Part shown: piece by piece, positions 1,218 to 6,234 of the stretch | Layout of the letters: each line of letters opens with the position of its first letter | How positions within the stretch are numbered: the stretch's first letter is position 1 | UHGV virus genome: UHGV-1551590 | DNA from: a virus | Reading direction: 5' to 3' (one strand) | DNA length: 10,283 nt | The notes under the pieces: generated by a model | Told to the model about the DNA's origin: nothing | Databases searched by the model: none | The model's input: only the letters and a program-made list of their open reading frames with translations | Position numbers and translations under genes: made by a program

Positions 1218-2951
1218 ATGAGCCGGAAATCTTACCCCAACGTAAATGCTGCCAATCAGTATGCCCGGGATGTCGTGCGCGGAAAGATTGTGGCCTGCCA
1301 GTTTGTGATTCAGGCCTGCCAGCGCCATCTTGATGACCTGATGGCGGAAAAAAGTAAGTCGTTTCGTTACCGCTTCGACAAGGACCTGGCTGAACGGGCC
1401 GCCAAATTTATTCAGCTGTTGCCGCACACCAAGGGTGAGTGGGCATTTAAGAGGATGCCCATCACGCTGGAGCCGTGGCGGCTCTTTGTGATCTGCTGCG
1501 CGTTTGGCTGGGTCAATAAAGGCTCCCGGCTGCGCCGCTTCCGTGAGGTGTATACCGAAATCCCCCGTAAGAACGGCAAATCGGCAATCTGTGCCGGTGT
1601 CGCCCTGTATTGTTTTGCCTGTGATAACGAGTTTGGCGCGGAAGTGTATTCTGGTGCTACGACAGAGAAACAGGCGTGGGAAGTCTTTCGCCCGGCGCGA
1701 CTGATGTGTAAACGCACACCCATGCTGACGGAAGCGTTCGGGATTGAGGTTAACGCCTCAAACATGAACCGTCCGGAGGATGGCGCGCGGTTTGAACCGC
1801 TGATCGGTAACCCCGGTGATGGATCATCACCCCACTGTGCGGTGGTGGATGAATATCACGAGCACGCCACCGATGCGCTTTACACCACGATGCTTACCGG
1901 GATGGGGGCGCGACGTCAGCCACTGATGTGGGCCATTACTACTGCCGGGTACAACATTGAGGGGCCGTGCTACGACAAGCGGCGGGAAGTCATCGAGATG
2001 CTCAACGGCTCGGTGCCCAACGATGAACTGTTCGGGATCATCTATACCGTTGATGAAGGTGATGACTGGACCGACCCGCAGGTGCTGGAAAAAGCTAACC
2101 CGAATATTGGCGTGTCGGTTTATCGCGAATTTTTGTTAAGTCAGCAGCAGCGTGCGAAAAATAACGCCCGTCTGGCAAACGTCTTTAAAACAAAACACCT
2201 CAATATCTGGGTGTCGGCGCGTTCGGCGTATTTCAACCTGGTGAGCTGGCAGAGCTGCGAGGATAAATCACTGACCCTTGAGCAGTTCGAGGGGCAACCG
2301 TGCATTCTGGCCTTTGACCTGGCGCGTAAGCTGGATATGAACAGCATGGCGCGACTTTATACCCGCGAGATTGACGGTAAAACGCATTACTACAGTGTGG
2401 CTCCGCGCTTCTGGGTACCGTATGACACGGTGTACAGCGTCGAGAAAAATGAAGATCGCCGGACAGCCGAACGCTTTCAGAAATGGGTGGAAATGGGCGT
2501 TCTGACCGTTACCGATGGTGCGGAGGTGGATTATCGCTACATCCTCGAGGAGGCCAAAGCGGCGAACAAAATCAGCCCGGTCAGTGAGTCACCCATCGAC
2601 CCCTTCGGGGCGACCGGGTTGTCACATGACCTTGCTGATGAAGACCTGAATCCCGTCACTATCATTCAGAACTACACCAACATGTCCGACCCGATGAAAG
2701 AGCTGGAAGCGGCAATTGAATCGGGGCGCTTTCATCATGATGGCAATCCCATCATGACCTGGTGTATCGGCAACGTGGTCGGCAAAACCATTCCGGGTAA
2801 CGATGATGTGGTGAAGCCCGTCAAAGAGCAGGCGGAAAACAAAATCGATGGTGCAGTTGCGCTGATTATGGCGGTTGGCAGAGCCATGCTGTACGAGAAA
2901 GAAGACACGCTGTCTGACCACATTGAGTCCTATGGGATCCGCTCGCTTTAA
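1218..2951 (+). CDS. Terminase large subunit (ATPase/nuclease)
   Basis: 577-aa ORF immediately after the small subunit gene. Size and position are typical of HK97-like large terminases, and no long ORF competes with it. Confidence 0.9.
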
Positions 2952-2962
2952 CTGAGGTAATT

Positions 2963-3145
2963 ATGATCATGCTGATTCTCGCGCCTCTGGTGGGCGTGCT
3001 GGGGGCGCTTTTGCTGGCGTATGGTGCCTGGCTGATTTATCCCCCGGCGGGGTTTGTTGTTGCCGGGGCGTTGTGCCTGTTCTGGTCGTGGCTGGTGGCG
3101 CGATATCTCGACCGTACACAGTCGTCTGTCGGCGGAGGTAAATAG
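2963..3145 (+). CDS. Small hypothetical membrane protein (60 aa, two predicted transmembrane helices)
   Basis: GAGG at 2954-2957 precedes the ATG at 2963. Two hydrophobic segments ([24 protein letters not shown] and [17 protein letters not shown]) flank a PPAG turn. Stop TAG 3143-3145 overlaps the portal GTG start at 3145. GC content matches its neighbours. Confidence 0.55.
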
Positions 3146-4386
3146 TGTTCTTTTCGGGATTATTTCAACGAAAAAGTGACGCACCGGTGACCACGCCAGC
3201 AGAGCTGGCGGATGCTATCGGGTTGTCCTACGACACCTATACCGGAAAGCAGATCAGCAGCCAGCGGGCCATGCGACTGACGGCGGTTTTTTCCTGTGTC
3301 AGGGTGCTGGCGGAGTCGGTCGGGATGTTGCCCTGCAACCTGTATCACCTGAACGGCAGTCTGAAGCAGAGAGCCGCTGGCGAACGTCTGCATAAGCTGA
3401 TCTCCACGCATCCCAATGGCTATATGACGCCGCAGGAGTTCTGGGAGCTGGTGGTCACCTGTCTGTGCCTGCGGGGAAACTTTTACGCCTACAAAGTGAA
3501 AGCATTTGGCGAAGTGGCTGAACTGCTGCCCGTCGATCCCGGCTGTGTGGTACCGAAGCTTAACAGTAGCTGGGAGCCGGTCTATCAGGTCACATTCCCG
3601 GATGGCTCCACGGATGTACTGAGCCAGGAGGATATCTGGCATGTGCGCACGCTGACGCTGGACGGACTGGTGGGGCTGAATCCCATCGCCTATGCCCGCG
3701 AGGCAATATCGCTGGCGGCAGCGACCGAAGAGCACGGGGCCAGACTGTTCAGCAATGGCGCGGTGACGTCGGGTGTGTTGCGTACAGAGCAGACGCTGTC
3801 AGATCAGGCTTATGAGCGCCTGAAGAAAGATTTTGAGGAGCGTCACACCGGGCTTGGCAATGCTCACCGCCCGATGATCCTTGAGATGGGGCTGGACTGG
3901 AAGTCGATGGCGCTGAACGCCGAGGACAGCCAGTTCCTGGAAACCCGCAAGTTTCAGCTTGAAGAAATCTGTCGTCTGTTCCGGGTGCCGTTGCACATGG
4001 TGCAGAACACCGATCGCGCCACCTTCAACAATATCGAAGAGCTGGGGCTGGGATTTATCAACTATTCACTGGTGCCGTATCTGACCCGCATCGAACAGCG
4101 GATCAACACCGGACTGGTACGAAAAAGTAAGCAGGGCGTTTATTACGCCAAATTTAACGCCGGGGCGTTACTGCGCGGGGATATGAAGTCCCGTTTTGAA
4201 GCCTACGCCACCGGGATCAACTGGGGAATTTACTCTCCCAATGACTGCCGCGACCTGGAAGATATGAATCCGCGTTCCGGTGGTGATGTCTATCTCACAC
4301 CGATGAACATGACCACGAAACCCTCCGATGGCAGTAAAGCCGGTAAGCAGAAGGATAACGCCAATGCAGACGAAACAACGTCTTGA
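3145..4386 (+). CDS. Portal protein, HK97 family
   Basis: 413-aa ORF downstream of the large terminase. GTG start at 3145 follows GGAGG at 3134-3138. Size and conserved position are typical of HK97-family portals. Confidence 0.9.
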   Translation: MFFSGLFQRKSDAPVTTPAELADAIGLSYDTYTGKQISSQRAMRLTAVFSCVRVLAESVGMLPCNLYHLNGSLKQRAAGERLHKLISTHPNGYMTPQEFWELVVTCLCLRGNFYAYKVKAFGEVAELLPVDPGCVVPKLNSSWEPVYQVTFPDGSTDVLSQEDIWHVRTLTLDGLVGLNPIAYAREAISLAAATEEHGARLFSNGAVTSGVLRTEQTLSDQAYERLKKDFEERHTGLGNAHRPMILEMGLDWKSMALNAEDSQFLETRKFQLEEICRLFRVPLHMVQNTDRATFNNIEELGLGFINYSLVPYLTRIEQRINTGLVRKSKQGVYYAKFNAGALLRGDMKSRFEAYATGINWGIYSPNDCRDLEDMNPRSGGDVYLTPMNMTTKPSDGSKAGKQKDNANADETTS

Positions 4387-5014
4387 TGTACCGCTGAGTC
4401 TGAAATCTGTCAGTGACTCCGGTGAGTTTGAAGGGTATGGCTCCGTCTTTGGTGTAAAGGACAGCCACGATGATGTGGTGATGTCAGGGGCATTTGCCGC
4501 TTCCCTGCGGGCGTGGAGTGACAGAAAAGCGTTACCTGCGCTGCTCTGGCAGCACCGCATGGATGAACCCATCGGTGTTTACACCGAAATGAAGGAAGAC
4601 GATGTCGGGCTTTACGTCAGGGGACGGTTGCTTATTGATGATGATCCCCTCGCAAAACGCGCACATGCACACATGAAGGCCGGTTCGTTAACCGGCCTTT
4701 CTATTGGGTACGTCCTGAAAGACTGGGAATACGACCGGAGCAAAGAAGCCTTTCTGCTGAAAGAAATCGACCTCTGGGAAGTCAGCCTGGTGACGTTCCC
4801 GTCTAACGACGAGGCGCGGATCAGCGACGTCAAGAACGCACTGGCCCGCGGGGAAATCCCCGAACAGAAAAAAATCGAAAGAGTCCTGCGTGATGTCGGA
4901 CTCTCCCGTACCCAGGCCAAAGCATTCATGGCCGGGGGCTATGGCGCACTGTCCCTGCGCGACGCTGAGGATGTGGGCTCTGCACTGAATGCACTGAAAA
5001 ATCTGAACTTCTAA
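4364..5014 (+). CDS. Prohead maturation protease, HK97 family
   Basis: Contains the motif GYGSVFGVKDSHDDVVMSGAF typical of HK97 prohead proteases. Lies between portal and capsid genes. Preferred start is ATG 4364 with AAGGA at 4351-4355; the track's ORF opens at 4328 and overlaps the portal 3' end. Confidence 0.85.
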   Translation: MQTKQRLDVPLSLKSVSDSGEFEGYGSVFGVKDSHDDVVMSGAFAASLRAWSDRKALPALLWQHRMDEPIGVYTEMKEDDVGLYVRGRLLIDDDPLAKRAHAHMKAGSLTGLSIGYVLKDWEYDRSKEAFLLKEIDLWEVSLVTFPSNDEARISDVKNALARGEIPEQKKIERVLRDVGLSRTQAKAFMAGGYGALSLRDAEDVGSALNALKNLNF

Positions 5015-5028
5015 TCAGGAGAAATACG

Positions 5029-6234
5029 ATGGCGGTTGATATTAAAGATGTCGAACAGGTCGCGCAGGAGCTGCAGCAGAAGTTTGACGACTTCAAAGCA
5101 AAGAACGACAAGCGCGTTGAGGCGATTGAGCAGGAAAAAGGCAAACTTGCCGGGCAGGTGGAAACCCTGAACGGAAAACTCAGCGAGCTGGAAAATCTCA
5201 AAAGCGACCTTGAAAAAGAGCTGCTTGAGCTGAAACGTCCGGCAGGTGGAGCGCAAAATAAACTGGCCACCGAGCATAAAGAGGCGTTTGTGGGCTTCCT
5301 GCGTAAAGGCCGTGAAGACGGTCTGCGCGATCTGGAGCGTAAGGCATTGCAGGTGGGCACCGATGAAGACGGTGGCTACGCCGTGCCGGAAGAACTGGAT
5401 CGCAACATTCTTAACCTGCTGAAAGATGAAGTGGTGATGCGTCAGGAAGCCACGGTGATCACCGTTGGCGGTTCCGACTACAAAAAACTGGTGAATCTGG
5501 GCGGTACGGCTTCCGGATGGGTGGGGGAAACGGATACGCGATCCCAGACTGCCACCTCCAGACTGGAGCTGATTGAACCTCTCATGGGGGAAATCTACGG
5601 CAACCCGCAGGCTACCCAGAAAATGCTGGACGATGCCTTCTTCAACGTGGAGGCCTGGATCAACAGCGAGCTGGCAACCGAATTTGCCGAACAGGAAGAA
5701 ATTGCCTTTACCTCCGGCGATGGCACCAAGAAGCCGAAAGGGTTCCTGGCGTATGAGTCCACTGATGAAACCGATAAGGTCCGGGCGTTCGGCAAACTTC
5801 AGCATATTGTATCCGGCGACGCGACTGCGGTGACCGCAGACGCCATTATCAAACTGATTTACACGCTGCGAAAGGCACACCGCACTGGCGCGAAGTTCAT
5901 GATGAACAACAACAGCCTGTTTGCCATCCGTCTGCTGAAAGACACCGAGGGTAACTATCTGTGGCGTCCTGGGCTGGAACTGGGGCAGCCGTCCTCTCTG
6001 GCGGGTTACGGTATCGCTGAAAACGAACAGATGCCGGATATCGCCGCTGATGCGAAAGCCATTGCATTTGGTAACTTCAAACGGGGTTACACCATCGTTG
6101 ACCGTATCGGCACCCGCATTCTGCGTGACCCGTACACCAATAAACCGTTTGTCGGTTTTTATACCACCAAGCGCACCGGCGGGATGCTGGTCGATTCGCA
6201 GGCCATCAAACTGCTGAAGATTGCAGCGGCGTAA
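5029..6234 (+). CDS. Major capsid protein, HK97 family, with N-terminal coiled-coil scaffold-like (delta) domain
   Basis: 401-aa ORF with AGGAG at 5017-5021. The N-terminal roughly 100 residues are charged and heptad-like (EQVAQELQQKFDDFKAKNDKRVEAIEQEKGKLAGQVETLNGKLSELENLKSDLEKELLELK), followed by a capsid-sized body. Directly follows the protease gene. Confidence 0.9.
   Translation: MAVDIKDVEQVAQELQQKFDDFKAKNDKRVEAIEQEKGKLAGQVETLNGKLSELENLKSDLEKELLELKRPAGGAQNKLATEHKEAFVGFLRKGREDGLRDLERKALQVGTDEDGGYAVPEELDRNILNLLKDEVVMRQEATVITVGGSDYKKLVNLGGTASGWVGETDTRSQTATSRLELIEPLMGEIYGNPQATQKMLDDAFFNVEAWINSELATEFAEQEEIAFTSGDGTKKPKGFLAYESTDETDKVRAFGKLQHIVSGDATAVTADAIIKLIYTLRKAHRTGAKFMMNNNSLFAIRLLKDTEGNYLWRPGLELGQPSSLAGYGIAENEQMPDIAADAKAIAFGNFKRGYTIVDRIGTRILRDPYTNKPFVGFYTTKRTGGMLVDSQAIKLLKIAAA

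Follow-up and report, generated by a model that had tools for sequence, protein, structure and literature searches.

The window considered here is a stretch of 10,283 nucleotides from the virus genome UHGV-1551590, in which a short open reading frame (ORF), ymfR, at 2963..3145 (+), lies between the gene for the large terminase (TerL, 1218..2951 (+)) and the GTG-initiated gene for the portal protein (3145..4386 (+)). The former is recognized by the Pfam TerL_ATPase and TerL_nuclease models and by PHROG 9 (E = 1e-195), and the latter is of the HK97 type (TIGR01537 portal_HK97, 2.3e-76; Pfam Phage_portal, PF04860, 1e-107). The ymfR gene has its own Shine-Dalgarno sequence, a GAGG read from the sequence at 2954..2957 (+), with a 5-nt spacer to the ATG at 2963, which lies 11 nt beyond the TerL stop codon (TAA, 2949-2951). 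At its other end the TAG stop codon (3143-3145) and the portal GTG (3145-3147) share one G, giving a TAGTG junction with a 1-nt overlap, and the portal Shine-Dalgarno sequence, a GGAGG similarly read at 3134..3138 (+), is contained within ymfR codons 58-59. As the portal Shine-Dalgarno sequence sits in the last ymfR codons and the stop overlaps the portal start, YmfR and the portal should be made together, late, and in linked amounts. We find that ymfR is a genuine gene of a late head-assembly operon, which comprises genes for an HNH endonuclease (186-593), a P27-family small terminase (TerS, 710-1204), TerL, YmfR, the portal, an S78 prohead protease (4328-5014) and the major capsid protein (5029-6234). 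A reading made earlier from the letters of the window without database searches (hereafter the sequence-only reading) had noted the dedicated ribosome-binding site and the overlapping stop and start codons, both of which hold. It had also expected late co-expression; this follows from the operon layout, and the ymfR gene of Escherichia coli K-12 is up by ~4.5 log2 under SOS induction along with other genes of its e14 prophage (PMC10012262).

The protein encoded in the window is 100% identical to YmfR of E. coli K-12 (b1150, from the e14 cryptic prophage) and matches PHROG 502, "membrane protein", with E = 2.5e-28. The region has matches in 1593 of 5426 complete E. coli genomes, and RefSeq names the gene ymfR in them. 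Hence, the ORF as an object is already known and catalogued as ymfR/PHROG 502, and by every feature tested the window protein belongs there; the sequence-only reading described the ORF correctly without recognizing the named gene. The 60-residue K-12 protein, labelled "IPR020297 domain-containing protein YmfR" in RefSeq, also has matching neighbors, namely the terminase remnant aaaE upstream and the portal remnant beeE downstream, but both are pseudogene fragments, whereas the window retains the whole head module intact. In this decayed e14 of strain MG1655 (L207, 2671-4705) ymfR is intact and aaaE and beeE are truncated; because the gene is so short, its survival is no evidence of selection. 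PHROG 502 and its sibling PHROG 7105 include SfII gp03, ST64B Sb3, the phiP27 protein, phiKO2 Gp3 and Marinobacter phage AS1 Gp3, whose size, two-helix build and position between TerL and portal are all as in the window, with no difference in kind. The gene is annotated as a "(putative integral) membrane protein" in SfII, SfI, ST64B (Sb3), phiP27, 118970_sal3 and phiKO2 (Gp3), and is left unannotated in the SfIV record.

Beyond these labels, database searches returned little. No Pfam family was recovered for the window protein or 66 diverse relatives, only scattered sub-threshold matches to two-helix domains of unknown function; there is likewise no NCBIfam family for the window protein, and a sequence search of the PDB found no solved structure with a homologue. 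Foldseek searches against BFVD and the PDB retrieved uncharacterised small helical proteins or noise alone, as is expected for a 60-residue hairpin. Four GenBank records (ON470603, ON470584, ON470580 and PQ793804) call the ymfR homologue "head-tail joining protein W", apparently a positional label. Lambda gpW is indeed similarly small (68 residues) and its gene too lies between those of the large terminase and the portal (genes A and B). However, it is polar and charged and lacks a hydrophobic helix, in contrast to YmfR, which is hydrophobic over residues 1-47; an hhalign comparison gave a probability of 3.8%, reflecting a four-residue PAGF coincidence alone, and we rejected this identity.

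Two hydrophobic stretches, residues 2-25 and 31-47, lie on either side of a YPPAG turn, with Kyte-Doolittle 19-residue means of 1.3-2.7 over residues 1-50, and an AlphaFold2 model shows helices at 2-25 and 27-56 (mean predicted local distance difference test score 75.7). Hydropathy, structure prediction and conservation together delineate a first transmembrane helix (residues 2-25; 2966..3037 (+)), bearing a glycine-rich face formed by G11, G14 and G21, and a second (residues 31-47; 3053..3103 (+)), in which G35 is invariant family-wide. Between them is the turn (residues 26-30; 3038..3052 (+)), which is marked by conservation, selection and charge, and a C-terminal tail follows (residues 48-60; 3104..3142 (+)). 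Lysine and arginine together average 1.7 on the N-terminal side, 0.11 in the turn and 1.6 on the C-terminal side across 105 family members. Given this distribution and the positive-inside rule, the protein is predicted to be an inner-membrane hairpin with both ends, including the tail, in the cytoplasm and the turn facing the periplasm. We also considered helix 1 as a cleavable signal peptide, given an A/S-Y/F-G | A motif resembling a signal-peptidase site; this appears unlikely because the helix has conserved glycine and leucine positions, unlike signal peptides.

The members of the family share a G-A-W-x-I-Y-P-P-A-G-F signature, centered on the turn and joining the two hydrophobic helices. 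Among the 66 diverse members G14, G21, W23, P28 and G30 are each kept in at least 90% and G35 in all. A profile of 28 enterobacterial sequences (E <= 0.001) recovered at least 381 family clusters at the 50% identity level, and nearly all of the 148 clusters listed comprise proteins of 45-110 residues; a wider profile recovered 1532 clusters at the 90% level. All 66 diverse members match PHROG 502 and 16 of them also match PHROG 7105. Natural tandem double hairpins of 102-122 residues occur in four of the 148 representatives listed (P0152, P0169, P0178 and P0222), and locus L198 (1500-1808) has a tandem hairpin duplication as well. These duplications suggest a working unit with at least two hairpins in the same orientation, and in conjunction with the conserved glycines they hint at self-association. 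A search for Rosetta-stone fusions between the hairpin and the portal found none among the 148 and the 120 best family members listed, the tandem hairpins being the only fusions seen.

We then looked at selection across 67 distinct nucleotide versions of ymfR. Variable columns are concentrated at third codon positions (50, as against 33 at first and 22 at second positions), and the median pairwise ratio of nonsynonymous to synonymous substitution rates (dN/dS) is 0.37, falling below 1 in 99.9% of 1863 pairs. The corresponding polymorphism ratio (pN/pS) is 0.02 in the turn, 0.25 in helix 2, 0.38 in helix 1 and 0.87 in tail residues 48-57. P8, G11, G14, L17, L18 and G21 are invariant in Enterobacterales, and a full-length ORF of 55-64 codons was recovered in nearly all YmfR-type loci examined. 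These results establish ymfR as a real protein-coding gene rather than a chance reading frame, and together with hydropathy and the predicted hairpin they bear out its earlier description as a small two-helix membrane protein. The C-terminal G58 and G59 are also invariant, which is because the portal GGAGG is read as their codons. As the tail is otherwise near-neutral and its terminal glycines are constrained at the nucleotide level, the functional center is not the charged tail; selection acts on both helices and the YPPAG turn. The short charged tail singled out in the sequence-only reading is indeed present, then, but is the least-selected part of the protein.

These data bear directly on the idea that ymfR is purely a translational leader, whose translation delivers ribosomes to the weak portal GTG and whose peptide is functionless. 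The overlapping stop and start codons, the portal Shine-Dalgarno sequence inside the ORF, the nucleotide-level constraint on the terminal glycines and the recurrence of TGATG or TAATG junctions in 19 of 25 divergent genome loci (see below) are all consistent with it. However, a functionless peptide conflicts with the strong amino-acid-level selection, particularly in the turn, with the retention of the peptide motif across phyla of different DNA composition and with the number of family clusters found by the profile search. We consider this the least probable of the explanations weighed here, with next to no weight in its favor. Disrupted copies were also encountered. In a second prophage copy of Shigella flexneri SFBU0723 (L011, 4001-4179) ymfR is frameshifted, being 1 nt shorter and matched in two tblastn pieces; its neighbors seem intact (TerL 99%, portal 98.5%), and the frameshift reflects either a mistake in sequencing or a loss that is tolerated. 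Frameshifted singletons are present in the protein database too (P0128, P0133, P0134, P0140, P0142 and P0157).

To place the gene in a wider genomic context, we scanned for the signature pattern using one genome per species, which yielded 33 loci, 25 of them divergent. In 20 of these 25 the ORF runs up to, or stops just short of, a portal gene whose product is 26-39% identical to that of the window, and in 19 of those 20 the junction is TGATG or TAATG, mostly the former. These 20 loci come from Reyranella and Shinella (Alphaproteobacteria), Rhodoferax (Betaproteobacteria), Lysobacterales and metagenome-assembled genomes (MAGs) of Ruminococcaceae. The same adjacency is seen in metagenome loci L200-L204 and in 11 of 12 loci from more divergent subfamilies; as the most divergent of these has no conserved stretch for an alignment-based locus search, its loci were collected by single-protein searches. 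Portal-adjacent hairpins are also encoded by phiKO2 (gp3), Marinobacter phage AS1 (gp3), Mycobacterium phage Baka (gp7) and Vibrio phage K336. In several cases (L021, L028-L030 and L200/L201) TerL is 0.7-2 kb away with other genes in between, and the hairpin still adjoins the portal. The gene is thereby kept at the same position far beyond close relatives, and the absence from syntenic relatives that would have spoken against it was not seen. These distributions indicate that the ymfR family has long belonged to the head operon and is not a recent insert there; it is ancient and widespread and is stably kept within lineages. In two compact modules, L198 (JGI Ga0376689_0103876) and L027 (an alphaproteobacterial MAG), the hairpin lies upstream of an S78-type protease with no recognisable portal next to it, and neighboring proteins of 320, 125 and 227 residues in these modules have no Pfam or PHROG match. 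These may encode very divergent portals or represent reduced satellite-like or gene transfer agent-like elements.

A further indication of what the hairpin is linked to came from phage SfV, which has the TerL 3' end in common with the window but a different portal (28% identity), with a gap of 100 nt between the two genes in the record. This gap holds an unannotated 53-residue two-helix ORF, MKSLIADVIGLAGFGLLTCGVYLQFGMAPALILSGALLLVGALAMARRGTRAA (NC_003444 2289-2450, L114), between orf2 and orf3, which matches PHROG 7105 (3e-22) and PHROG 502 (6e-6) and scores 25 bits against the family profile, as compared to at most 8.3 bits for 500 shuffled versions. The annotated SfV portal start (GTG 2392) overlaps the hairpin ORF; a start at GTG 2440, which is preceded by AGGGGGA and aligns with the portal start of the window, appears likelier. 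A hairpin was found in 80 of 80 SfV-type portal loci from IMG/VR. The presence of the gene between terminase and portal is the rule both in these and in the YmfR-type loci, and it was not "inserted" there, as the sequence-only reading had put it.

Recombination junctions at the TerL end tell the same story from both sides. In SfV TerL was kept and the hairpin and portal were swapped together, and in phi467 and 606R7 the hairpin and portal were kept with a different TerL. Across 129 haplotypes, whose pairs are not independent, hairpin identity correlates with that of the portal 5' end with a Spearman rho of 0.89, as against 0.75 for the TerL 3' end. Further, there are 150 pairs in which a divergent hairpin accompanies a near-identical TerL 3' end and none in which it accompanies a near-identical portal 5' end. 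These observations show that the hairpin is co-inherited with the portal and not with TerL.

The sequence-only reading had pointed to superinfection exclusion or another host-modifying role, and PHROGs places the family in its category "moron, auxiliary metabolic gene and host takeover". A moron in the sense of Juhala and Hendrix forms a transcription unit of its own, with a promoter and a terminator, differs in GC content from the genes around it, occurs in some otherwise syntenic close relatives and not in others, and is expressed from the repressed prophage (PMC3594210). A consensus scan of the + strand, which does not extend to non-canonical signals, found a sole promoter-like match, a weak 9/12 hit ~500 nt upstream. 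The one terminator-like hairpin that such scanning gave, at 2981-3008 (+), lies inside ymfR and is annotated in the SfII record as a putative rho-independent terminator. It was rejected as a terminator: its z-score is -1.09 and 28 of 200 shuffled sequences are as stable, and the hairpin is probably a by-product of glycine, alanine and leucine codons. The GC fraction of ymfR is 0.607 (0.705 at third codon positions) versus 0.545 for TerL and 0.562 for the portal, slightly above its neighbors yet inside their range, with 7% of 183-nt neighbor windows being equally high. The composition is native, therefore, as the sequence-only reading had stated in arguing against a recent foreign insert. Presence is not sporadic either, the gene being kept in nearly all YmfR-type and all SfV-type loci and absent clade-wide from the HK97 type (0 of 80 loci).

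A specific form of this idea is that YmfR, expressed in the lysogen, blocks entry of incoming genomes in the manner of HK97 gp15. Both gp15, which is encoded within a structural operon and excludes superinfecting phages, and T4 Imm are small phage inner-membrane proteins like YmfR (PMC3594210), and the survival of an intact ymfR in the decayed e14 could be cited in support, albeit weakly, a 183-nt gene being a small mutational target. However, gp15 has its own promoter and terminator, deviating GC, sporadic distribution and prophage expression, and ymfR lacks those of these features tested here; its translation is coupled into the late operon; and K-12 ymfR transcription rises with lytic genes on SOS induction (PMC10012262). 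A search with PADLOC gave no matches for four family members, and comparison with T4 Imm gave an hhalign probability of 0.23%, HK97 gp15 and P22 SieA not being among the exclusion proteins compared. A prophage-expressed exclusion role is poorly supported, and we regard it as quite improbable; more generally, the genomic evidence assembled here does not support the moron and host-takeover category for this family.

A different kind of membrane function deserves more weight. The class II holins or pinholins, such as phage 21 S68, are proteins of ~60-70 residues with two transmembrane helices, faces of small residues and a short charged C-terminus, and holins, antiholins and viroporins are typically built as small two-helix hairpins rich in glycine. 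YmfR could accordingly be a late membrane effector, with an oligomer of hairpins altering the host inner membrane (by ion leak or changed potential, by setting lysis timing, or by a late block to phage DNA entry) with no role at the portal, its position being kept by the tight operon and the embedded Shine-Dalgarno sequence. The concentration of selection on the membrane-embedded helices and the outward-facing turn instead of the cytoplasmic parts would fit this well, as would the self-association suggested by tandem double hairpins, the PHROGs category, and the dispensability of the gene, which is missing from HK97 and from 13 of 18 related phages (see below). In an overexpression screen the ASKA ymfR clone released D-alanine in the first round, for which the authors suspected leakage or lysis; however, the result is non-specific, as 65 of 392 membrane-protein clones behaved alike, and growth of an overexpression clone at 0.1 mM isopropyl β-D-1-thiogalactopyranoside is a point of difference from the holins (PMC10299036). 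Other observations are also less easily accommodated. The gene lies between TerL and portal, outside a lysis cassette, and a related locus (L203) has a separate annotated holin (PF16085) upstream of its terminase genes. No Pfam holin model matches the window protein or its 66 relatives, and there is no PADLOC match. As the turn motif is kept over Alpha-, Beta- and Gammaproteobacteria, a mycobacteriophage and possibly Firmicutes, the target of such an effector must be near-universal. Finally, entrenchment of the gene in the operon does not explain the lack of pairs combining a divergent hairpin with a near-identical portal 5' end. A late effector of this kind is, in our assessment, possible though far from probable.

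The constant pairing with the portal gene could alternatively mean that the hairpin is packed at the portal vertex of the virion and released to help DNA cross the inner membrane. Some proteins travel with the portal, SPP1 gp7 and the P22 ejection proteins among them, and their genes often lie close to the portal gene. However, a protein hydrophobic from residue 2 should insert co-translationally into the membrane of the producing cell, and no solved structure contains a homologue. Moreover, the family is found in myovirus-type and siphovirus-type genomes alike, in which tail tape-measure proteins usually perform the DNA-passage job. We think it very unlikely that YmfR is such a virion or ejection protein.

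What best accounts for the constant pairing of hairpin and portal is a functional link between the two, and our best guess, held with low confidence, is that YmfR is a late, portal-coupled membrane accessory factor. Under this proposal ribosomes would start at the ymfR Shine-Dalgarno sequence, 11 nt past the TerL stop, with the stop/start overlap coupling translation of the portal; YmfR would work within the membrane, probably as a homo-oligomer packed via its glycine faces; and it might provide an inner-membrane site for the portal or for the initiation of prohead assembly. A precedent is offered by T4, in which the viral chaperone gp40, a phage-encoded, membrane-associated factor for head vertex assembly that acts on the portal, assists assembly of the gp20 portal initiator at the inner membrane (PMC9958956). 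YmfR would be a functional analogue and not a homologue of gp40, which is longer (114 residues), largely polar and without a two-helix hairpin, and whose gene lies beside uvsX and gene 41 and not beside that of the portal. A more specific version, in which YmfR forms an oligomeric inner-membrane platform, possibly a ring like those of glycine-rich two-helix proteolipids, where the portal dodecamer assembles or is positioned, is unlikely as stated.

Several observations weigh against a portal-linked role. The first group concerns phages that lack the gene. In HK97 itself the stop codon of TerL and the start codon of the portal gene overlap, and none of the 80 HK97-type loci has a hairpin gene. 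In a spread sample of 18 phages with related portals (21-39% identity), 13 have no two-helix ORF of any kind at the portal. As the gene is missing from HK97 and from many related phages, the hairpin is dispensable for this head type in general. The remaining five have a two-helix ORF adjoining the portal: these include Baka gp7 (20 bits), Ralstonia phage YO168_1 (22.5 bits) and Vibrio phage K336 (15 bits), with Vibrio phage Va_91-7-154_p41 and Pseudomonas phage PAJU2 (ORF005) as weak cases. The Baka hairpin would extend the family to actinobacteriophages. In the records Baka gene 7 (L383, 510-698) is a "membrane protein" and the K336 ORF (L382, 541-744) a "hypothetical protein", both at the TerL-portal junction, and from its annotated start onward the K336 portal gene has 44 nt in common with the hairpin ORF.

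The second group concerns the protein and its linkage. The parts of it predicted to be cytoplasmic, which a portal would have to contact, are short, variable in sequence and near-neutral, and its most conserved element is predicted to face the periplasm, as would suit a target in the membrane or the periplasm better than binding to the portal; the topology is itself a prediction alone. Comparison of YmfR with T4 gp40 revealed no homology (hhalign probability 0.35%). Pairs with near-identical hairpins include 83 with a divergent portal 5' end (<90% identity) as well as 69 with a divergent TerL end. The adjacency may also reflect entrenchment without a functional link, because the portal Shine-Dalgarno sequence lies inside ymfR and deletion of the ORF would damage portal expression. 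In the literature searched we found no work on the function, localisation or proteomics of YmfR or its homologues, and YmfR is mentioned there solely in lists of genes, in connection with e14 deletions, in a transcriptome of the SOS response and in an overexpression screen; searches on b1150, IPR020297, phrog_502 and a terminase-portal membrane protein returned nothing functional. A candidate partner site on the portal was also dropped: the hydrophobic-then-basic N-terminal motif of clade portals at first seemed correlated with the hairpin, but it is present on portals without a hairpin too. This motif is seen in MFFSGLFQRK (window 3145-3180), MAGLFGSLASGLRRR, MGIFSGLFRSRDK and MGWFDFIRRGK (L006-L033, L380-L392), and is absent from HK97 gp3 and lambda gpB. 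Taking all this together, we consider the portal-linked accessory factor and the late membrane effector to be about equally good readings, and leave the remaining probability to functions outside the five explanations discussed.

If YmfR does form such an oligomeric platform for the portal, the membrane would be where proheads are initiated in a large group of HK97-like phages, a step so far documented for T4 (gp20/gp40) alone, and the stop/start coupling would keep the amounts of platform and portal matched. A membrane factor made with the portal would also be a concrete lead on how HK97-like phages come to have just one portal, at one vertex of the capsid. The region is present in ~30% of complete E. 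coli genomes, with relatives in prophages of several bacterial phyla, and the family moves from a "moron or host-takeover gene" to a "possible head-module accessory factor". What the present analysis adds to the catalogued gene is the depth of its attachment to the portal, the pattern of selection, the missed SfV homologue and the mismatch with the moron category. Two annotation fixes follow, namely the addition of the ORF missed in SfV and the removal of the "head-tail joining protein W" mislabel from several records.

Some records encountered in these searches call for care in their taxonomy, MAGs in particular, as one contig filed under "Bacillota" clearly represents a prophage of E. coli. 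The contig in question (L002, JAEWTL010000102.1, a "Bacillota bacterium" MAG), the 1764-bp record OR844959.1 ("Enterococcus phage Efm 3-10") and L004 (Edwardsiella hoshinae NBRC 105699) are all 96-100% identical to the E. coli/Shigella prophage head module described here. Mis-binning, contamination or mislabelling is likely, though L004 could be a real transfer. In the window itself, the longest ORF of the S78 protease gene, beginning with the ATG at 4328, overlaps the 3' end of the portal gene by 59 nt (4328-4386), and its true start may lie downstream.

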